A stretch of DNA of 10,290 nt from a virus. Lineage: Duplodnaviria > Heunggongvirae > Uroviricota > Caudoviricetes. The stretch is from IMG/VR virus record IMGVR_UViG_2711768000_000004; one strand, 5' to 3'. The position numbers were made by a program, and so were the translations under genes. How positions within the stretch are numbered: position 1 is the stretch's first letter; every line of letters begins with the position of its first letter. Below, in pieces: positions 1 through 10,290 of this stretch. The notes below the pieces were generated by a model, which was not told the DNA's origin, ran no database searches, and saw only the letters and a list, made by a program, of their open reading frames with translations.

Positions 1-87
1 AGAGCCTGTCCAATGTGCATAAAAAAATCCGGAAACAAGTGAGCGTTTCCGGATTCTTACACAGCCACTGGATCGGTCAACTGATCC

Positions 88-1335
88 TTAACTGATCGGC
101 ATTACACCACCGGGACGCGGATTCATATCTTCCAGGTCGCGGCAGTCATTGGAAGAGTAAATTCCCCAGTTGATCCCGGTGGCGTAGGCTTCAAAACGGG
201 ACTTCATATCCCCGCGCAGTAACGCCCCGGCGTTAAATTTGGCGTAATAAACGCCCTGCTTACTTTTTCGTACCAGTCCGGTGTTGATCCGCTGTTCGAT
301 GCGGGTCAGATACGGCACCAGTGAATAGTTGATAAATCCCAGCCCCAGCTCTTCGATATTGTTGAAGGTGGCGCGATCGGTGTTCTGCACCATGTGCAAC
401 GGCACCCGGAACAGACGACAGATTTCTTCCAGCTGAAACTTGCGGGTTTCCAGGAACTGACTGTCCTCGGCGTTCAGCGCCATCGACTTCCAGTCCAGCC
501 CCATTTCCAGAATCATCGGGCGGTGAGCATTGCCAAGCCCCGTGTGACACTCCTCAAAATCTTTCTTCAGACGCTCGTAAGCATCCGGCGTGAGCTTTTG
601 TTCCGTACGCAACACACCGGATGTCACCGCACCATTACTAAACAACCTGGCACCGTGCTCCTCGGTTGCCGCTGCCAGTGAAATGGCCTCACGCGCATAC
701 GCAATGGGATTCAGCCCGACAAGTCCATCCAGCGTCAGGGTGCGCACATGCCAGATTTCATTCTGGGTCAACACATCCACGGAACCATCCGGAAACGTCA
801 CCTGATAAACCGGCTGCCACTGGCTGTTCAGCTTCGGTTCCACACAGCCCGGATCTATCGGAAGAAGCTCCACCACTTCTCCCAGTGCCTTTACCTTGTA
901 GGCGTAAAAATTCCCCCGTAGACACAGGCAGACAATAACCAGCTCCCAGAATTCCTGCGGTGTCATGTAGCCATTAGGTTTTGCCGAAACCAACTTATGC
1001 AGTCGTTCATCCACCGCCCGTGTTTTCAGGGTACCGCTGATTTTGTAGAGACTGCAGGGCAGCATACCAACAGACTCTGCCAGCACCCTGACGCAAGAAT
1101 AGACCGCCGTCAGGCGCATGGCCCGCTGGCTACTGATCCGCTTTCCGGTATAGGTGTCGTATGACAGCCCGATAGCATCAGCAGTTCTGCTGGCGTGGTC
1201 ACCGGCACATCGCTTTTTCGTTGAAATAATCCCGAAAAGAACACTATTTACCTCCGCCGACAGACTGCCGTGTACGGTCGAGATATCGCGCCACCAGCCA
1301 CGACCAGAACAGGCACAGCGCCCCGGCAACAACAA
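88..1335 (-). CDS. Phage portal protein (HK97-like family); stop at 88 is firm, start is unresolved (1335 is the maximal ORF, a TTG)
   Basis: 415-codon ORF directly downstream of the terminase large subunit. Translation has a portal-like N-terminal motif ([27 protein letters not shown]). The first in-frame ATG is at 1119; no ATG or GTG lies in frame between the upstream small ORF stop (1244-1246) and 1119. Confidence 0.75.
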
Positions 1336-1426
1336 AACCCGCCGGGGGATAAATCAGCCAGGCACCATACGCCAGCAAAAGCGCACCCAGCACGCCCACC
1401 AGAGGCGCGAGAATCAGCATGATCAT
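1244..1426 (-). CDS. Small hydrophobic (two predicted TM segments) protein of unknown function
   Basis: ATG at 1426-1424 preceded by GAGG about 7 nt upstream, immediately after the terL stop TAA (1440-1438). The 60-aa product [48 protein letters not shown] is strongly hydrophobic with CTG-rich E. coli-like codons. Confidence 0.5.
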
Positions 1427-1437
1427 AATTACCTCAG

Positions 1438-3171
1438 TTAAAGCGAGCGGATCCCGTAGGACTCAATGTGGTCAGACAGCGTGTCTTCTTTCTCGTACAG
1501 CATGGCTCTGCCAACCGCCATAATCAGCGCAACTGCACCATCGATTTTGTTTTCCGCCTGCTCTTTGACGGGTTTCACCACATCATCGTTACCCGGCATG
1601 TTTTTGCCGACCACGTTGCCGATACACCAGGTCATGATGGGATTGCCGTCATGATGAAAACGTCCCGATTCAATCGCTGCTTCCAGCTCTTTCATCGGAT
1701 CGGACATATTGGTGAAGTTCTGGACGATAGTGACGGGATTCAGGTCTTCATCAGCAAGGTCATGTGACAACCCGGTCGCCCCGAAGGGGTCGATGGGTGA
1801 CTCACTGACCGGGCTGATTTTGTTCGCCGCTTTGGCCTCCTCGAGGATGTAGCGATAATCCACCTCCGCACCATCGGTAACGGTCAGAACGCCCATTTCC
1901 ACCCATTTCTGAAAGCGTTCGGCTGTCCGTCGATCTTCATTTTTCTCGACGCTGTACACCGTGTCATACGGTACCCAGAAACGCGGGGCCACACTGTAGT
2001 AATGCGTTTTACCGTCAATCTCGCGGGTATAAAGTCGCGCCATGCTGTTCATATCCAGCTTACGCGCCAGGTCAAAGGCCAGAATGCACGGCTGCCCCTC
2101 GAACTGCTCAAGGGTCAGTGATTTATCCTCGCAGCTCTGCCAGCTCACCAAGTTGAAATACGCCGAACGCGCCGACACCCAGATATTGAGGTGTTTTGTT
2201 TTAAAGACGTTTGCCAGACGGGCGTTATTTTTCGCACGCTGCTGCTGACTTAACAAAAATTCGCGATAAACCGACACGCCAATATTTGGATTGGCTTTTT
2301 CCAGCACCTGCGGGCCGGTCCAGTCGTCACCTTCATCAACGGTATAGATGATCCCGAACAGTTCATCGTTAGGCACCGAGCCGTTGAGCATCTCGATGAC
2401 TTCCCGCCGCTTGTCGTAGCACGGCCCCTCAATGTTGTACCCGGCGGTGGTGATGGCCCACATCAGTGGCTGACGTCGCGCCCCCATCCCGGTAAGCATT
2501 GTGGTATAAAGCGCATCGGTGGCATGCTCGTGATATTCATCAACCACGGCACAGTGGGGTGATGAACCATCACCTGGGTTGCCGATCAGCGGTTCAAACC
2601 GCGCGCCATCCTCCGGACGGTTCATGTTTGAGGCGTTAACCTCAATCCCGAACGCTTCCGTCAGCATGGGTGTGCGTTTACACATCAGTCGCGCCGGGCG
2701 AAAGACTTCCCACGCCTGTTTCTCTGTCGTGGCACCGGAATACACTTCCGCGCCAAACTCGTTATCACAGGCAAAACAATACAGGGCAACACCGGCAGAG
2801 ATTGCTGATTTGCCGTTCTTACGGGGGATTTCGGTGTACACCTCCCGGAAGCGGCGCAACCGGGTGCCTTTATTGACCCAGCCAAACGCACAGCAGATCA
2901 CAAATAGCTGCCACGGCTCCAGCGTGATGGGCATCCGTTTGAATGCCCACTCCCCCTTGGTGTGCGGCAACAGCTGAATAAATTTCGCGGCCCGTTCAGC
3001 CAGGTCCTTGTCGAAGCGGTAACGAAACGACTTACTTTTTTCCGCCATCAGGTCATCAAGATGGCGCTGGCAGGCCTGAATCACAAACTGGCAGGCAACA
3101 ATCTTTCCGCGCACGACATCCCGGGCATACTGATTTGCAGCATTTACGTTGGGGTAAGATTTCCGGCTCAT
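1438..3171 (-). CDS. Terminase large subunit (TerL)
   Basis: 577-aa ORF with Walker A-like PRKNGKS, an acidic VVDEYH motif and a C-terminal nuclease-like region. Its ATG (3171-3169) overlaps the upstream terS stop TGA in an ATGA arrangement. Confidence 0.95.
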
Positions 3172-3662
3172 GATTCGATAATTTTCAGAAACGGGTTAGT
3201 GGCTTTCTTCTGCCCCGCCAGGCCAATCAGACGCTGGCGGCTGCTGGGGTCGAGTCCGAGCATTGCCCCCGTGCTGCTCATCTCGGACTCCTGTTCTTTT
3301 TTGGCGGTCAGCTCCGGATTTTTGACCCTGCCGCCCATTGCACCGGTGATGGTGTTGCCCTGTATGGCAATATTTTTCACGGCACGTCGCCAGAACTCAT
3401 AGGCCACGCACCACCGCTCAAGTACCGCCAGGTCAGTCACGCACAGCAGGCCCTGACCGCAGAGTTCTTTGGTTGTCAGTTGCCACATGATCGTGGCGAG
3501 AGGGAGATCTTCTTCAGCGAACCACTCTGGTGGCTCAACACCTTTGATGGGCGTAAAAACAGGTTCATCTTTGTTCAGGGCTCGCTTGCCGGGGTTTCCG
3601 GCCAGCGCCTTGCGCGCCGTTGGCTTGGGGCGACGCCCGGAACGCCCCGCCGTTCCAGCCAT
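3168..3662 (-). CDS. Terminase small subunit (P27 family-like)
   Basis: ATG at 3662-3660 with AGGAG about 9 nt upstream. N-terminus [27 protein letters not shown] is typical of P27-type small terminase subunits. Sits between an HNH gene and terL, as in HK97-like packaging modules. Confidence 0.85.
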
Positions 3663-3671
3663 ATGCGGCAC

Positions 3672-3783
3672 TCCTGGTTAAATTTCATTTTTCGCGGGTA
3701 TAAAAAAACGATGGGGCGGGCAGTCCGGAAGACGTCAGGTCACAGGGATTTGCCCCGCCCCTCCCTACAAGTGAGAATAATTA
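3672..3783. other. Candidate cos / packaging-initiation region
   Basis: Intergenic region between the HNH gene and terS. GC-rich imperfect dyad GGGGCGGGCA (3713-3722) and TGCCCCGCCC (3751-3760) pairs at 8 of 10 positions and flanks a GACGTC-containing core. HK97-like phages place cos between HNH and terS. Confidence 0.3.
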
Positions 3784-4134
3784 TCACCGGATTCGTTCGC
3801 GCGCTGTTTTCGCTTTATGGCAGGGCCAGCACAGACTCTGCAGGTTGCTGTCTGCGTCTGTTCCGCCATGCGCTTTCGGGATGATGTGGTCGACGGTTTT
3901 CGCCTCGCTCACCACACCGACACGCAGACACAACTGACACAGACCTTTATCGCGCTTCAGAATACGGGCACGAATCACCGTCCATTTTGAGCCATAGCCA
4001 CGCTGGTGGCGGCTCAGTCCGCGCTGGTGCTGCACCCAGCCTTCACCGCGATGTTTATCGCAGTAACCCGAACTGTCTGTGGTTGTACCTGCACATCCAC
4101 GCTTACGGCAGGCACGTGGGATTAGTGATGGCAT
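3784..4134 (-). CDS. HNH homing endonuclease (packaging-associated)
   Basis: 116-aa ORF with Cys-rich CxxC pairs and an HNH core (DHIIPKAHGGTDADSNLQSLCWPCHKAKT). ATG at 4134-4132 with GAGGT upstream. Immediately precedes terS. Confidence 0.9.
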   Translation of the reverse strand: MPSLIPRACRKRGCAGTTTDSSGYCDKHRGEGWVQHQRGLSRHQRGYGSKWTVIRARILKRDKGLCQLCLRVGVVSEAKTVDHIIPKAHGGTDADSNLQSLCWPCHKAKTARERIR

Positions 4135-4176
4135 AAATACCTCATACCCTGCGAAATGTTTACCACGATAAAAAGG

Positions 4177-4641
4177 CTACTTAATGCACTGAGTGCGGAT
4201 ATACTCCTGTGCCCCTTCCAGTTGCATCTGCATCGTCATCAGCCGCTCTCTGAGGGTGAAATAATCCCGTTCAGCGGTGTCTGCCAGTCGGGGGCTGGTT
4301 GCATTATCCACGCCGGAGGCGGTGGTGGCTTCACGCACTGACTGACAGACTGCTTTGATGTGCAACCGACGACGACCAGCGGCAACATCAGCGCGCAGAG
4401 TTTCATTTTCAGCTTTCGCATCAGCTAACTCCTTCGTGTATTTAGCATCGAGTGCATTAACATCACGCTGTCTCTGCTGCATGTCAGTAATGGTTGCGTT
4501 CGCCAGCTTCAGTTCTCTTGCGTTTTTGTCGCGCTGCTCTTTGTAGGTAATGGCGTTATCACGGTAATGATTAACAGCCCATGACAGGCAGACGATGATG
4601 CAGATAACCAGAGCGGAGATAATCGCGGTGACTCTGCTCAT
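4177..4641 (-). CDS. Rz: Spanin inner-membrane subunit (i-spanin, Rz)
   Basis: Translation from [21 protein letters not shown] has an N-terminal TM segment then a coiled-coil periplasmic domain. It closely matches my recollection of DLP12 RzpD / phage 21 Rz. The ATG (4641-4639) overlaps the endolysin stop (ATGA). Confidence 0.85.
4239..4421 (-). CDS. Rz1: Spanin outer-membrane lipoprotein subunit (o-spanin, Rz1), embedded in Rz in an alternate frame
   Basis: [20 protein letters not shown] has a signal peptide and lipobox (VVGC) followed by a proline-rich PPPPPAW segment. The gene lies wholly inside Rz, the classic Rz/Rz1 arrangement. Confidence 0.8.
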
Positions 4642-5135
4642 TGCTGCCCCCACAAACAGACTTCACGCTCAATCTCACGACGGGTCATCAGCCCTTTCCA
4701 TTGCTTACCGCCAGCATATGTCCAGCGACGTAGCTGGTCACATGCGCCTTTGATATCGCCCTGGTTTATTTTGCGAAGAAGCGTCGATGTTCTGAAATTG
4801 CCAGCGCCCACGTTGTAAACGAACGAGTAAAGAGCGCCGCGCGTTGTTTCCGGTATATCGACTTTGATGTACGGGTTAATTTGTCTGGCGACAGTGGCAA
4901 GGTCTTTATTCAGGAGGGCTTTGCATTCTGCTTCGGTATACGTTTTACCGAGCATGATGTCTTTTCCGGTGTGTCCGTGACATACAGTCCATACACCAAT
5001 GATATCTTTGTATGGTATGTAGCTGACACCTTCCAGACCATCGTTACCACCTGGGCCAGTGATTAACACAGATGCTATAGCAACAGCCCCACCACCAATA
5101 GCAGCTGCAACAGCCTTGCGTAATGATGGCGACAT
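4638..5135 (-). CDS. SAR endolysin (lysozyme, phage 21 R / DLP12 RrrD-like)
   Basis: 165 aa. N-terminal signal-anchor-release segment [20 protein letters not shown], then a lysozyme core with E-D-T catalytic residues ([11 protein letters not shown]...[10 protein letters not shown]). Near-identical to my recollection of RrrD / R21. ATG at 5135-5133 with GAGGTG upstream. Confidence 0.9.
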
Positions 5136-5157
5136 TATTCACCTCTCGCAGCCTTAC
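5135..5157 (-). pseudogene. 3'-terminal remnant (last 7 codons plus stop) of a pinholin gene (S21/EssD-like), truncated by IS2
   Basis: Minus strand reads (C)GT AAG GCT GCG AGA GGT GAA TAA, i.e. K-A-A-R-G-E-stop. This matches the C-terminus ...REDRRKAARGE of S21/EssD as I recall it, with the usual TAATG overlap onto the endolysin start. The rest of the gene is replaced by IS2 starting at 5158. Confidence 0.55.
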
Positions 5158-5677
5158 TAGACTGGCCCCCTGAATCTCCAGACAACCAGTATCACTTAAA
5201 TAAGTGATAGTCTTAATACTAGTTTTTAGACTAGTCATTGGAGTACAGATGATTGATGTCTTAGGGCCGGAGAAACGCAGACGGCGTACCACACAGGAAA
5301 AGATCGCAATTGTTCAGCAGAGCTTTGAACCGGGGATGACGGTCTCCCTCGTTGCCCGGCAACATGGTGTATACGGAGAAGCACATCCGTATCATCAGTG
5401 TGACGACTGCGGCGGCCATCCATCCAGTCATCGGTTCGTCTGAGAATGACGTGCAACTGCGCACGCGACACCCGGAGACAACGGCTGACTAAGCTTACTC
5501 CCCATCCCCGGGCAATAAGGGCGCGTGCGCTATCCACTTTTTTGCCCGTCCATATTCAACGGCTTCTTTGAGGAGTTCATTTTCCATCGTTTTCTTGCCG
5601 AGCAGGCGCTGGAGTTCTTTAATCTGCTTCATGGCGGCAGCAAGTTCAGAGGCAGGAACAACCTGTTCTCCGGCGGC
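5158..5677 (+). mobile_element. IS2 (IS3 family) fragment with aberrant structure
   Basis: 5158 onward matches the IS2 left inverted repeat (TAGACTGGCCCCCTGAATCTCCAGACAACCA...) and the orfA start (ATG 5249, [41 protein letters not shown]). After about 5371 the sequence becomes the reverse complement of internal IS2: the minus strand encodes the InsC C-terminus and InsD N-terminus ([59 protein letters not shown]). The fragment ends at the N run. Confidence 0.8.
5249..5371 (+). pseudogene. IS2 orfA (InsC) N-terminal fragment, 41 codons, then sequence diverges
   Basis: In-frame match to the IS2 InsC N-terminus. Reading frame leaves IS2 orfA after ...ARQHGV at the junction near 5361-5371. Confidence 0.7.
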
Positions 5678-5712
5678 NNNNNNNNNNNNNNNNNNNNNNN
5701 NNNNNNNNNNNN
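5678..5712. other. Unresolved sequence (35 N)
   Basis: Run of n characters; assembly gap or masking. Confidence 1.
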
Positions 5713-5774
5713 CGATTTTGATATCGGGCCATTAAAAAAGATCGCGTAGCATTCTTAATTCATGAGGAACTTTA

Positions 5775-5839
5775 CCCGCCAGCAATCTGAGTAGCGAAAG
5801 CTGTTCATCCCCAATGTTTTTGCTGGCGGGTCCTTTTTT
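5775..5839 (+). terminator. Plus-strand terminator-like stem-loop with T tract
   Basis: ACCCGCCAGCAA (5775-5786) pairs with TTGCTGGCGGGT (5820-5831) around a 33-nt loop, followed by CCTTTTTT. Orientation is opposite to the phage genes. A plus-strand reading frame ends ...DFDIGPLKKIA-stop at 5749 just upstream. Confidence 0.35.
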
Positions 5840-6278
5840 CTACGGTCCTCCTCCCCGGAGGGGGGCATTTCATTATTTTTCTAATCGTTACTGGTGAGAA
5901 GGCGGAAGAAAAAGCCAGTTCTTCGCCCCTAAATAACAGCATGATTCCAGTCCATGCAAAATCTGATTTCCAGCTCACACATACCGAGCACTGTACAAAA
6001 AACCGCCAGCCAAGGCAGTTAAGAGTGTGTTCCCGGGGTTTGCTTAGAATATTTTGTAAGTTGTCCGAAGAGATATTTACAACACCAGAATGATGAATCA
6101 TCAGTCCCCTGCCAGAGGTTCACTACGTAACCTGACCGACAATGCACCATTCTGGTGCTGAAAAAAGAGCACTGGAACTGCAACAAAACAACATCACAGA
6201 ACAGGAGATGGTAAGGAGTCAGACATTCCCACACAATATTGTGTCAGTGCAAATAACAACCTTCGTCTCAAATCTCGC

Positions 6279-6353
<75 letters not shown>

Positions 6354-6356
6354 ATA

Positions 6357-6432
<76 letters not shown>

Positions 6433-6434
6433 GC

Positions 6435-6511
6435 TGGCCCACCACCGAGGACTCGAACCTCGCACCGTCAACTTAGAAGGTTGATGCTCTATCCGGATGA
6501 GCTAGTGGTGG
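6435..6511 (-). tRNA. tRNA-Arg (anticodon UCU), argN-like
   Basis: CCACCACTAGCTCATCCGGATAGAGCATCAACCTTCTAAGTTGACGGTGCGAGGTTCGAGTCCTCGGTGGTGGGCCA. Acceptor stem CCACCAC/GTGGTGG, anticodon stem TCAAC/GTTGA with loop CTTCTAA, T arm CGAGG-TTCGAGT-CCTCG, encoded CCA. Confidence 0.85.
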
Positions 6512-6512
6512 T

Positions 6513-6589
6513 TGGTGGCCCTTGCTGGACTTGAACCAGCGACCTGGCGATTATGAGTCGCTCGCTCTGACCAACTGAGCTAAAGGGCC
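6513..6589 (-). tRNA. tRNA with CAU anticodon (Ile2/lysidine type, ileX/ileZ-like; Met not excluded)
   Basis: GGCCCTTTAGCTCAGTTGGTCAGAGCGAGCGACTCATAATCGCCAGGTCGCTGGTTCAAGTCCAGCAAGGGCCACCA. Anticodon loop CTCATAA. Very similar to my recollection of E. coli ileX. Encoded CCA; a 27-43 A-C mispair in the anticodon stem. Confidence 0.8.
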
Positions 6590-6600
6590 GGAGGCAGAAT

Positions 6601-6629
6601 AATAACCATATGTCATCACATCTGCAAAC
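6601..6629 (-). promoter_or_regulatory. Candidate sigma70 promoter for the tRNA cluster
   Basis: Minus strand TTGCAG (6629-6624), 17 bp, TATTAT (6606-6601). The first tRNA 5' end (6589) lies about 12 nt downstream of the -10. Confidence 0.4.
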
Positions 6630-6677
6630 TCATCTGACCACCAGCACGTTTAACGTCCTGTGCCGTTTTTCAGGTAT

Positions 6678-6703
6678 AAAAAAACCCGCTCATCGGCGGG
6701 TTT
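6678..6703 (-). terminator. Rho-independent terminator (minus strand) upstream of the tRNA cluster
   Basis: Minus strand AAACCCGC-cgatga-GCGGGTTT followed by TTTTTTTA. Stem is 5-8 bp, loop 6 nt, T tract at 6684-6678. Confidence 0.55.
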
Positions 6704-6773
6704 AAGCTGTGTGGCGTAGTAACCACTCTTAACAGGATATTCAACTTTTTACGATCGTAAAGTTTTCGGAAAA

Positions 6774-6934
6774 NNNNNNNNNNNNNNNNNNNNNNNNNNN
6801 NNNNNNNNNNNNNNNNNNNNNNNNNNNNNNNNNNNNNNNNNNNNNNNNNNNNNNNNNNNNNNNNNNNNNNNNNNNNNNNNNNNNNNNNNNNNNNNNNNNN
6901 NNNNNNNNNNNNNNNNNNNNNNNNNNNNNNNNNN
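6774..6934. other. Unresolved sequence (161 N)
   Basis: Run of n characters inside or just downstream of the ORF6N-domain gene. Confidence 1.
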
Positions 6935-7252
6935 CCACGCCTGATCGGTTTCGAGCATTTTGGCGTGACGGGCTGCGCCACGTTCTGTCCAGAGGATGAG
7001 GGAGCGAACGTTACGGGCAATTTTCACAGAAACTCTTAAAGAGTTTTCGTTCTTCAACTCTCGTAACGCATCACCTTCTATCAGGAAAAAATGTTTACCT
7101 TCTATAAACCGTTCTTTGTTTCGATTGAAATTGTTTGTCAAACGCTGGCGCTCTGTTCCGTACAAATCAGCCAGCAGCTCTGTTGTCATGACAGGAAGAT
7201 GGTTATGCGTAAGTGACGGGAGTTTTTCAATAGACGTGCGATTCATAGACAT
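6935..7252 (-). CDS. ORF6N-domain protein (KilA-N/ORF6N-type phage DNA-binding, antirepressor-like), 3' end lost in N gap
   Basis: ATG at 7252-7250 with AAAGGA upstream. The 105 aa before the gap (MSMNRTSIEKLPSLTHNHLPVMTTELLADLYGTERQRLTNNFNRNKERFIEGKHFFLIEGDALRELK...RSLILWTERGAARHAKML) resemble the ORF6N domain pattern as I recall it. Confidence 0.55.
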
Positions 7253-7389
7253 GTCCTTTCGAATATTTTGATTTACCCCTTTTGAGAGGGTGACCGGGCG
7301 CTCAAAACCGTCGAAAGTCGGCGGGCGTATTTCCATTGCTGGTATTGTATTAGCCGCACACCCGGTCATAAACCAAGAATTCTGGACAC

Positions 7390-7417
7390 AAAAAAACCAC
7401 ATGGCTATCGGGTGTGG
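7390..7417 (-). terminator. Terminator/attenuator-like hairpin in the leader of the ORF6N gene
   Basis: Minus strand CCACA-cccgatagcca-TGTGG followed by TTTTTTT (7396-7390). Lies about 30 nt downstream of the second promoter. Confidence 0.45.
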
Positions 7418-7452
7418 ATACCGCTTTCGAGGTGTTTTGAGCACCGCGGGGA

Positions 7453-7481
7453 AATGTAAACTGCAAACCTGAAACTGTCAA
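7453..7481 (-). promoter_or_regulatory. Near-consensus sigma70 promoter (second module)
   Basis: Minus strand TTGACA (7481-7476), 17 bp, TACATT (7458-7453). Confidence 0.5.
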
Positions 7482-7607
7482 CACCGTCAGGTTCCAATCA
7501 TCGGGTGGTGAGACGCACAGGGTTGGAACTACCGGGAAACCGACCGGCGAGCTTTTCAGCTCCCCCATGCGCCCCACCATAATTCAGATGTGCGCGTGCA
7601 TACGACA

Positions 7608-7630
7608 ATAAAAAACACGCTCGCGGCGTG
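7608..7630 (-). terminator. Rho-independent terminator, candidate tR'
   Basis: Minus strand ACACGC-cgcga-GCGTGT followed by TTTTTATT. About 75 nt downstream of the promoter that abuts Q. Confidence 0.6.
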
Positions 7631-7692
7631 TGTCTGTCGCGGTCTCTATCCGGGGTTCCAATCCCGACGCCAGATTTTGCTGGCGCGTGAGG

Positions 7693-7722
7693 AATATAGC
7701 CCCGGACAATGTGTCTGGTCAA
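7693..7722 (-). promoter_or_regulatory. Candidate late promoter PR' with adjoining Q-utilisation region
   Basis: Minus strand TTGACC (7722-7717) begins 5 nt after the Q stop codon; -10 TATATT (7698-7693) at an 18-bp spacing. Initial transcribed region forms the hairpin CGCCAG-caaaat-CTGGCG. Position matches PR' in lambdoid phages. Confidence 0.55.
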
Positions 7723-7726
7723 GCAC

Positions 7727-8113
7727 CTACATAATTCGTTCTACGTATCTGTCCATCTCCAGCCGGATATCAAGCATCATCAACATGCCATCAATAACCC
7801 CTTCCGCTTTCTGCAGGCGCTTGCCAATACAGGTATCCGAACACCCATGTTTCCGTGCCAGACTCATAAAAGTCATTCCACCTACGTAATAATCCACCAG
7901 CAAATCGTGCAAATCCTGATTTTTCTTGTTCAACCGGGCCATACAGCCACAAATTATCATTGCATCATCATCAGAACACTGAGGGCGTGATTTCACTTTC
8001 GACGGAATTAACCCTTTAAAACCAGCAGCGATCGACGCCCAGGATACATCTTCATGAGTGTTTGCAGCCCAAGCCCCCCACCGTTCCATAACCTGCTGAA
8101 TATCACGCGCCAT
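7727..8113 (-). CDS. Q: Late-gene antiterminator Q (QuuD / DLP12-type)
   Basis: [61 protein letters not shown]... closely matches E. coli QuuD as I recall it. ATG at 8113-8111 with AGGTGA upstream; overlaps the rusA 3' end. Confidence 0.9.
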
Positions 8114-8474
8114 CGTTATCACCTGTGATTTCATAAATCTTCACGCCCAGTCGCCCACCAGGAACGAGCTGACCGCGCACAATATTGATTTCATCAAACT
8201 GCTCGTCGTCTATGAGTAGTCCGGCATGCGTCAGCGCATCCAGTGGTGCTTTCAGGATATTGTCCAGGTCACGACGGCGCTTATCCGGTGGCTCTGCAAT
8301 AATCTTTATCGCCAGCCTTCCGGACAGGTTTAATTTCAGCCGCTGCTGGCGAACAATTAGCGTCACATCACGGCGATAACGCTCACCAACTTTTGATACA
8401 AAATATGTGCTGCCACGACGTCGCCAGTAAGTATTCACCGTCGGCGGATAAGGTAAAATAAACTCATGGCGCAT
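8103..8474 (-). CDS. rusA: Holliday-junction resolvase RusA
   Basis: 123 aa, [21 protein letters not shown]...[24 protein letters not shown], typical RusA. Start ATG (8474-8472) overlaps the upstream gene stop (ATGA). Confidence 0.95.
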
Positions 8475-8716
8475 CAGCGCAGCACCTCCTGCACCATTTT
8501 TTCAAACTTTCCAACTTTGGTTTCCAGCTCTGCCACACAATCAACGAGCTCATCCACCGCTTTTTGTGCGCGATGTTTCGCCTGCATCAGTTCCCTGAGC
8601 GCTGGCACCATATCCCGACGAATGGCATCTTTTGTTACACCTGTTTTTTCCAGTTGTTCCGCCTGTCGCAACATTTCCTGCGCGTGTTTACGCAATTGTT
8701 CAGAGGTAAAAGTCAT
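8474..8716 (-). CDS. Small helical/coiled-coil protein of unknown function
   Basis: MTFTSEQLRKHAQEMLRQAEQLEKTGVTKDAIRRDMVPALRELMQAKHRAQKAVDELVDCVAELETKVGKFEKMVQEVLR, translationally coupled to rusA. Start is ATG 8716 or TTG 8731 (the TTG overlaps the dnaB stop). Confidence 0.5.
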   Translation of the reverse strand: MTFTSEQLRKHAQEMLRQAEQLEKTGVTKDAIRRDMVPALRELMQAKHRAQKAVDELVDCVAELETKVGKFEKMVQEVLR

Positions 8717-8727
8717 TGTCTGGTTGT

Positions 8728-10119
8728 TCAAAAGAAACGCTCCATCTTACTGCTGTCGGTACGTGTATTGCTGTATCTGCGCGGCTGGGGCTGCCGCATT
8801 GGGGTGGAAAGAACCTGTGCGCTTTCCTGGTCCACAGGCAGAAAATGTCCGTTATAAAAACGCCGGTAAATCGTCCCCAGAGAACCGTTACGTTGTTTCG
8901 TGATATTAATTTCTGCTATGCCTGTAGCCTGTGTATCCGGGTTGTACACTTCATCCCTGTAAAGCATCAGAATGATGTCTGCATCCGCCTCTATTTCTCC
9001 GGAATTTTTCAGGTCTGAGTTCATGGGACGTTTATTGGGTCTGGACTCCACACCGCGGGAGAGCTGGCTCAGCGCAATCAACGGAAAACCACCGGATTTT
9101 GCCAGGCCTTTAAGCCCCTTTGAGATTTCACCCACGGCAAGGTCATGACGCCCCGTGGTTCGGGTTTTTATCAGCCCGAGATAATCAACCACCACCAGCG
9201 CCGTTTCCGGATGTTTAATCAGATGGTGTTTCGTTGTTGCGCATATCTCATCAATGGTCAGGTTCGCCTGGTCCACCATCCAGATATTGCGCCCGGTCAT
9301 CCGCCCCACCCCTTGTGAGAAACGCGCCCAGTCTTCATCTTCAAAGTGAGCCACAGATTTCAGGCGTGATACTGGCATCCCTCCAGCCGCAGACACCATA
9401 CGTTCACCAATCTGGATGTTCGCCATCTCCATGGTGAACAGAAGCACACCATGCCCCTGCTCAGTCACCTTGTCGATGATGTCCAGCGCAAGTTCGGTTT
9501 TCCCCATCGAAGGACGGGCGGCAATGAATACCAGGTCTCCGGGCTCCATACCGCCTGTTTTTGCGTCCAGTTCATCAATACCGGTCATCAACGTCCTGGA
9601 TTTCTCCAGCCCCTGATTCCGGCATTCAACACGCTCAACCACTTCCGGAAGCACATCATCAATATGTACCGGCTGAATGACGCCCTTTCCTGTCGACAGT
9701 GTGACCATCATGTTCTGCGCATCCTTCAGGGCATCTTCAGCTGCTTCACAGGTATGCGCATCACGTAATTTCTGCAGCGCCTCATTCAGTGTTTTTTCTG
9801 CATCGCGCAGTGCGGCATTGCGCCGCAACGCTGCAACATAGTGCTCCAGTGAAGACTTCACCCAGGTTTTACGCCCGGTATCAGTAATCACCGGGGCAAG
9901 TTCCGGCATCTCATTACACAACAGCACGGGGTCAATCACTCCTGAAACACGGGCCTGTCTGCAGATGCCTGTGTAGATATCCCGATACGCTCGTACAGAA
10001 AAAATGTCCGCCGGTAGTGTGATCAGAATATCCATCACTTCATGATCTGCCCCACGCAGAAAGAATGCGCCAATGACAGCGCCTTCCAGGTCATCATTAC
10101 GCCAGACTGGTGTTGTCAT
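8728..10119 (-). CDS. Replicative DNA helicase, DnaB family (phage-encoded)
   Basis: 463-aa product with DnaB N-terminal domain, Walker A (ARPSMGKTELALD), Walker B / arginine-finger region (ADADIILMLYRDEVYNPD) and KRPMNSDLKNSGEIE. ATG at 10119-10117 with GAGGTG upstream. The six-frame ORF extends to 10260 only because it runs into IS2. Confidence 0.9.
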   Translation of the reverse strand: MTTPVWRNDDLEGAVIGAFFLRGADHEVMDILITLPADIFSVRAYRDIYTGICRQARVSGVIDPVLLCNEMPELAPVITDTGRKTWVKSSLEHYVAALRRNAALRDAEKTLNEALQKLRDAHTCEAAEDALKDAQNMMVTLSTGKGVIQPVHIDDVLPEVVERVECRNQGLEKSRTLMTGIDELDAKTGGMEPGDLVFIAARPSMGKTELALDIIDKVTEQGHGVLLFTMEMANIQIGERMVSAAGGMPVSRLKSVAHFEDEDWARFSQGVGRMTGRNIWMVDQANLTIDEICATTKHHLIKHPETALVVVDYLGLIKTRTTGRHDLAVGEISKGLKGLAKSGGFPLIALSQLSRGVESRPNKRPMNSDLKNSGEIEADADIILMLYRDEVYNPDTQATGIAEINITKQRNGSLGTIYRRFYNGHFLPVDQESAQVLSTPMRQPQPRRYSNTRTDSSKMERFF

Positions 10120-10222
10120 GCAGCCACACCTCTGATACAAGAACGGTAGCTGGGCCAGTTGAACGACAACCAGTTGCGCCCCCCGTCTGTGATCCTGTCG
10201 GCAATGCGGGGGCTGATGAACG
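10116..10222 (-). pseudogene. C-terminal remnant (about 35 codons) of an upstream replication-initiation gene truncated by IS2
   Basis: Open frame ...AFISPRIADRITDGGRNWLSFNWPSYRSCIRGVAA-stop ends with a TGA that overlaps the dnaB ATG (ATGA coupling). The frame is cut at the IS2 terminus at 10222/10223. The replication role is inferred from position only. Confidence 0.4.
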
Positions 10223-10290
10223 CTGGATTTGCCCCTATATTTCCAGACACCTGTTATCACTTAACCCATTACTGGCTTGCTGCCGTAGAT
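10223..10290 (-). mobile_element. IS2 right end (IRR and 3' end of orfB); element body continues beyond the window
   Basis: Reverse complement of 10223-10290 reads ...CGGCAGCAAGCCAGTAATGGGTTAAGTGATAACAGGTGTCTGGAAATATAGGGGCAAATCCA, the IS2 orfB C-terminus (...NGLSDNRCLEI-stop) and terminal repeat as I recall them. Confidence 0.75.

Follow-up and report, generated by a model that had tools for sequence, protein, structure and literature searches.

The 10,290-nt stretch of DNA analyzed here (the window) is a decayed P27-like lambdoid prophage remnant in the Shigella sonnei lineage, cut at one end by the insertion sequence IS2 directly upstream of the replicative helicase gene dnaB. The best explanation, to which we assign a probability of about 0.88, is that this IS2 marks the join left by a larger rearrangement that fused the helicase-loader gene of the prophage to the chromosomal gene ypjA. 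Both the junction and the remnant are already present in published complete genomes and there is nothing new at the locus; a literature search for this particular locus returned nothing specific.

The plus strand across the junction reads GATGAACGC up to position 10223 and TGGATTTGCCCCTATATTTCCAGACACC from position 10224, also given as GGGGCTGATGAACGC followed by TGGATTTGCCCCTATATTTCCAGACACCTGTTATCACTTAACCCATTAC. Pairwise alignment of the window with the prophage of E. coli EC11 is unbroken to 10223 and collapses there. A megablast search with positions 9900-10290 matched 9900-10223 to many prophages at 95-97%, under the paired annotation of replicative DNA helicase and ATP-binding protein, and no match ran past 10223, with the junction present in 0 of the 5,426 complete E. 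coli genomes. Among phage records, 10100-10223 corresponds to the overlap between the DnaC-like helicase loader and replicative DNA helicase genes of phiP27 and PhiR49_2, and the last 67 nt (10224-10290) are 100% identical to annotated IS2/InsD ends, with the match starting at 10223/10224. The terminal sequences that were compared, starting TGGATTTGCCCC at the right end and TAGACTGGCCCCC at the left end, are those of IS2. Because prophage homology ends at 10223 and IS2 identity covers 10224-10290, the IS2 terminus is position 10224, one base to the right of the coordinate given in the preliminary description. An exact search for the junction recovered 11 IMG/VR contigs and found no match in the contigs of species-representative genomes, a collection that probably lacks S. 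sonnei. The combination of a perfect 67-nt IS2 match with the 97% protein match described below is far beyond chance.

The frame that runs into the junction on the minus strand consists of exactly 35 sense codons (10119-10223) followed by a TGA at 10116-10118, which overlaps the dnaB ATG (10117-10119) as ATGA (10116-10119). The encoded peptide is identical at 34 of 35 positions (97%, E = 2e-22) to residues 258-292 of a 292-residue EC11 protein annotated as an ATP-binding protein. The EC11 protein has IstB_IS21 and Bac_DnaA Pfam matches at residues 112-269, and its phiP27 homologue is annotated as a DnaC-like helicase loader. These similarities identify the 35 codons as the C-terminal tail of a DnaC/IstB-like helicase loader broken between codons 257 and 258 of 292. 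The ATPase domain is nearly all lost because the domain matches lie at residues 112-269 and the remnant starts at 258. The window holds a gene fragment and no member protein of the loader family with its ATPase domain; the fragment does occupy the position of a loader gene, in that a DnaB-type helicase gene follows at once and its start codon overlaps the stop codon of the fragment. The loader and helicase genes of EC11 and phiP27 overlap in the same way (4 nt in annotated coordinates), and the DnaB of the window has the same length as the products of their genes. A look-up of the exact 463-residue DnaB in the assembly collection gave 3506 index blocks, corresponding to thousands of assemblies, and the protein is carried at 10 of the 10 places listed. 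The preliminary description had proposed that an IS2 end cuts an open frame upstream of dnaB, leaving about 35 codons with similarity to the C-terminus of a phage replication protein. This is borne out, with the terminus moved from 10223 to 10224, and the suggested comparison with related intact prophages both places the break, after 10223 in the EC11 alignment, and names the gene that the tail belongs to. The 35-codon frame should be labelled in annotation as a pseudogene fragment of a DnaC-like loader.

The window stops inside IS2, and the far side of the element was read from relatives with an identical junction, namely nine complete chromosomes (L013-L021) and one IMG/VR contig (L011). The nine chromosomes are those among the matches listed for the exact DnaB. 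One of them is HE616528.1, which we take to be Shigella sonnei 53G, and the species assignment rests on that assumption. The relatives are 100% identical to the window across 6935-10290, and we infer the far side in the source genome from them. IS2 is complete in all ten at about 1331 bp (1326-1331 bp across records), with ORFs of 121 and 301 residues that match HTH_Tnp_1 and rve and with imperfect terminal repeats (a 32-nt inverted repeat at 78%), so that the length, terminal repeats and two ORFs of IS2 are all present in the relatives with this junction; the window shows 67 nt of the element. The transposase genes lie on the minus strand at the junction and are transcribed towards dnaB. The left end of the complete element does not adjoin the 5′ part of the loader gene; it adjoins the chromosomal autotransporter/adhesin gene ypjA, and this flank is 96.7-99.3% identical to E. 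coli ypjA/EhaD. The truncated gene, ypjA′, is reduced to 459 residues and stands in the context csiD - ygaQ - ypjB/C - pinH - ypjA′. The joint of ypjA′, IS2 and the loader remnant in HE616528.1 has the same junction sequence as the window, which merely stops 67 nt into the element.

The five bases flanking IS2 are AACGC on the loader side and GCAAC on the ypjA side. Because the flanks lack the 5-bp target duplication, this IS2 is a rearrangement or deletion joint and not a simple insertion, and its identity as IS2 is unaffected. The earlier statement that the element is not a simple single insertion is therefore upheld, by these flanks and by the presence of ypjA beyond IS2 in the nine chromosomes. 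The expectation that the sequence past 10290 would supply the rest of IS2 and the 5′ part of the cut gene held for the first and failed for the second, where ypjA is found instead. When the left-end region of the IS2 beside ypjA (8566-8779 in L013-L021) is compared with the left end at 5158-5371 of the window, 6 of 218 positions differ; at least two IS2 sequence variants coexist in the lineage, because the two copies differ at these positions. The features of the window are collected in Table 1.

Table 1. Features of the prophage remnant and of the insertion sequences in the window.
Feature	Position	Strand	Basis or remark
IS4 end cutting the 3′ end of the portal gene	1..104	-	E. coli prophage homology begins at 105-107
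Portal gene, last phage gene kept	105..1335	-	Pfam Phage_portal, 3.3e-107
IS2 left end (IRL, nt 1-214)	5158..5371	+	Orientation opposite to IS2 at 10224
IS2 internal segment, nt 591 down to 275, reversed	5361..5677	-	Joined via an 11-nt overlap, 5361-5371
35-N run (scaffold gap)	5678..5712	.	Followed by unmatched 5713-5728; prophage resumes at 5729
Four tandem phage tRNA genes, Gly-TCC, Thr-TGT, Arg-TCT, Met-CAT	6279..6589	-	ARAGORN
Q antiterminator gene	7727..8134	-	Pfam Phage_antitermQ, 2.7e-52
RusA Holliday-junction resolvase gene	8103..8474	-	Pfam RusA
dnaB, intact phage DnaB-type replicative helicase	8728..10119	-	Pfam DnaB_C, 7.8e-73; 463 residues
3′ remnant of DnaC/IstB-like helicase loader gene	10116..10223	-	35 codons and TGA
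IS2 right-end flank, 5 bp AACGC	10219..10223	.	Flank comparison in complete genomes
IS2 right end (IRR side)	10224..10290	-	Last 67 nt before the window end

All phage genes of the window lie on the minus strand. The gene order in the complete chromosomes runs from IS2 through the loader remnant, dnaB, an 85-residue ORF, RusA, Q, a 74-residue ORF, an ORF6N protein and the tRNA genes to holin, lysozyme, Rz, HNH, TerS, TerL, a 60-residue ORF and portal, with IS4 following in several. The remnant spans 105-10223 of the window (about 10 kb), with IS4 as its boundary at the portal end and IS2 at the loader end. Positions 1-104 are the end of an IS4, as judged by its terminal repeat, and in several of the chromosomes (L014, L015, L018 and L020 among them) an IS4-type transposase (Nterm_IS4, DDE_Tnp_1) adjoins the portal gene. 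The remnant is not a complete P27-like prophage with integrase, regulators, replication, lysis and morphogenesis genes: it reaches only from the 3′ end of the loader gene to the portal gene, everything from the integrase through loader codon 257 is gone, and the functions for integration, regulation, initiation and helicase loading are lacking, as are those for head and tail. The term replication-defective cryptic prophage, which had been applied to the locus, is correct and, if it errs, understates the damage.

Several further observations concern the interior of the remnant. The tRNA genes lie downstream of Q; phiP27 has two tRNA genes there, followed by stx2e and then the lysis genes, and no toxin genes are present at the tRNA position of the window. 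The small and large terminase genes are immediately preceded by the HNH endonuclease gene (3784-4134). Positions 6774-6934 are 161 N that stand in place of 257 nt in the 100%-identical relatives, covering the 3′ part of the ORF6N-domain gene and a spacer, and the listed 231-residue ORF at 6749-7444 is an artefact of reading through this N run.

The second IS2 sequence in the window, reported earlier as a fragment at 5158, is real, and its left-end piece (5158-5371) is 100% identical to IS2 in L004. The insertion point lies directly after CGCAGCCTTAC, within the holin gene at 7 codons from its stop; the holin gene overlaps the start of the lysozyme gene. The left end is followed by a fold-back into a reversed internal IS2 segment, and the switch point sits in the internal 16-nt imperfect inverted repeat of IS2. 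The 35 N and the 16 nt that follow them (CGATTTTGATATCGGG, 5713-5728) stand where 323 nt including the holin gene are missing. Neither the fold-back junction nor the 16 nt after the gap was found in IMG/VR, and the fold-back region is unmatched in complete E. coli genomes; the fold-back may be a genuine rearrangement by template switching or a chimera made in assembly.

None of the nine complete chromosomes has the insertion at 5158, nor do L022 and the four S. sonnei-type IMG/VR contigs in which the site is covered (L003, L006, L007 and L011). A complete 1331-bp IS2 is found at exactly the same holin site in L023 (3191-4525) and L024 (260-1594), whose flanks are about 98% identical to the window and mark a slightly different lineage. 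The element in these two sequences is a plain insertion because it is bordered by a perfect CTTAC target duplication. Use of the same site suggests either a hot spot for IS2 insertion or transfer of the segment between lineages. The copy at 5158 is an independent, strain-specific insertion, unrelated to the IS2 at the junction and probably later than it.

The preferred explanation of the joint starts with one IS2 in the loader gene and another in ypjA. Homologous recombination between the two elements, which is the likeliest route, or intramolecular IS2 transposition would then have fused the loader and ypjA sites. The early half of the prophage would have been lost or displaced in this step, taking with it the integrase, the excisionase, the regulators, the helix-turn-helix initiator-like protein and loader residues 1-257, and the remnant would be unable to excise, to initiate replication or to load its own helicase. 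With the portal gene cut by IS4 it would not form particles either, and the IS2 at 5158 would have entered the holin gene of this strain later and independently. The junction, the remnant and, in the relatives, the far-side flank are observed; the order of these events, and deletion or displacement of the early half, we infer. A search for the reciprocal junction, in which the left end of IS2 would be joined to AACGC, turned up two matches in IMG/VR, both with unrelated flanks. Among the best 80 of 147 IMG/VR loci that match the 5′ 257 codons of the loader, the loader gene is uninterrupted in all 80 and none comes from the 11 junction-carrying genomes. These negative results for the reciprocal joint come from the virus-flagged contigs of IMG/VR and mildly favor deletion. 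Recombination between two IS2 copies and transposase-mediated adjacent deletion both fit, because the reciprocal junction that would tell them apart was not found in IMG/VR.

The end of the window inside IS2, where the far side is not directly seen, leaves room for a simple insertion of IS2 into a prophage that is whole in other respects, with the 5′ part of the loader and the early genes just past the element. That arrangement is extremely improbable given that in each of the ten relatives that share the junction (nine complete chromosomes and L011) ypjA is on the far side and the 5-bp duplication is lacking. The window looks like a complete short-read scaffold with its ends in repeats, as suggested by its start inside IS4, its end inside IS2, two N runs and a chimeric-looking IS2 segment, and these same features could point to a loader/IS2 junction that is itself an assembly artefact of a short-read draft. 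The identical junction occurs in nine closed chromosomes and in 11 independent IMG/VR contigs, which makes an artefact barely conceivable. The two IS2 copies in the window could also be seen as acting jointly on the 5-kb dnaB-RusA-Q-tRNA block that they bracket, either as the borders of an invertible segment or as a composite transposon. The copies are indeed oppositely oriented with the block between them, and inverted IS copies are reported to be substrates for inversion in Shigella, which has high rearrangement rates (PMC8072062). The block nevertheless keeps the ancestral orientation found in phiP27 and EC11, with which it is collinear. The 5158 copy, fragmentary in the window, is missing from all other S. 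sonnei-type sequences examined, and in the sequences where IS2 is complete at this site a target duplication marks it as a plain insertion. The block turned up at no other location. A composite transposon is further contradicted by the differing outer flanks and the ancestral phage context of the block, and joint action of the two copies is very unlikely. Both IS2 ends flanking the block are real, and their bracketing of it is coincidental, the 5158 copy being separate and absent from relatives. The earlier idea of IS2-mediated rearrangement survives in the loader/ypjA joint and fails for an inversion between the copies, since the block is collinear with phiP27 and no inversion is recorded. 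Genome scans that encounter an apparent IS2 pair bracketing a block of this kind should not take it as a mobile or invertible unit.

It had been suggested that the IS2 right end could supply promoter activity reading into dnaB, and neither site prediction nor a published reporter assay supports this. A scan for sigma-70-type consensus sequences covered 650 nt, comprising the IS2 end (its last 400 nt) and the junction; it gave no site on the dnaB strand and no terminator-like site between IS2 and dnaB. A -35-like TGGAAA in IRR is followed 16-18 nt on by GCGTTC, CGTTCA or GTTCAT, none of which is usable as a -10 by eye, and neither a consensus nor a hybrid promoter is present. In a reporter assay the promoter activity of the 150-bp IS2 right end was undetectable, and this end had the lowest probability of gaining a promoter by mutation, with a Pnew of 0.02 (PMC12095673). 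Two reading frames are open across the junction from the IS2 end: a 44-codon ORF that starts at GTG 10250 and keeps the ATGA overlap with dnaB, and the dnaB frame itself, which extends up to GTG 10260. The stop codon of InsD lies 11 nt inside IS2, so no fusion protein is formed.

A wider version of the promoter proposal holds that dnaB expression is driven or made possible by the IS2 right end, whether from a promoter (outward or hybrid) or by transposase read-through, and that the orphan helicase is maintained and expressed. The IS2 transposase genes do face dnaB with no terminator-like site between them, the 44-codon hybrid ORF starts at a GTG within the IS2 end and preserves the ATGA overlap, and dnaB is intact. 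These points are outweighed by the lack of a promoter-like site on the dnaB strand, the lack of a usable -10 at the right distance from TGGAAA, and the inactivity and low Pnew of the 150-bp right end (PMC12095673), and the proposal is unlikely. Read-through from the IS2 transposase promoter into dnaB, as judged from gene orientation and the absence of a terminator-like site, is possible. S. sonnei is a young clone, and an intact and identical dnaB is therefore no evidence of selection. It is most unlikely that a DnaB orphaned of its loader and initiator has been kept and is expressed by IS2 read-through, coupled via the 44-codon leader ORF, in the service of the host; if it were, the orphan DnaB could, for example, interfere with the replication of incoming phages or back up the host DnaB.

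The closest points of reference for the remnant are P27-like phages and prophages. The Stx2e phage phiP27 (NC_003356) is collinear with the remnant from L18 to L38, and phiP27, EC11 and PhiR49_2 share with the window the order loader - DnaB - small ORF - Q - tRNAs - lysis - HNH - TerS - TerL - small ORF - portal. DNA identity in the loader/dnaB overlap region is 91-97% to phiP27 and P27-like E. coli prophages, and phiP27 has the same HNH-terminase arrangement, with an annotated cos site between the HNH and terminase genes. Upstream of the shared segment phiP27 has an integrase, an excisionase, regulators and a helix-turn-helix protein (L17), and downstream it has head and tail genes, whereas in the remnant nothing is left of the genes before loader codon 258 or to the right of the portal gene. 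The remnant also differs in that the stx genes are missing, RusA is present and a lambda-type holin/lysozyme/Rz cassette replaces the phiP27 lysis genes. IS2 and IS4 are among the five insertion sequences that have expanded in Shigella and caused pseudogenes, gene loss and strain variation, and their expansion together with gene loss is documented in S. sonnei (Hawkey et al. 2020, PMC7373316). The present locus resembles that pattern, with IS2 and IS4 bounding the remnant and a further strain-specific IS2 in the holin gene, and is ordinary IS-mediated prophage decay of the kind documented for Shigella at population scale. It has little import beyond annotation, and illustrates both how repeats end and scramble short-read scaffolds and how Shigella prophages are whittled down by IS2 and IS4 until only inert pieces are left.
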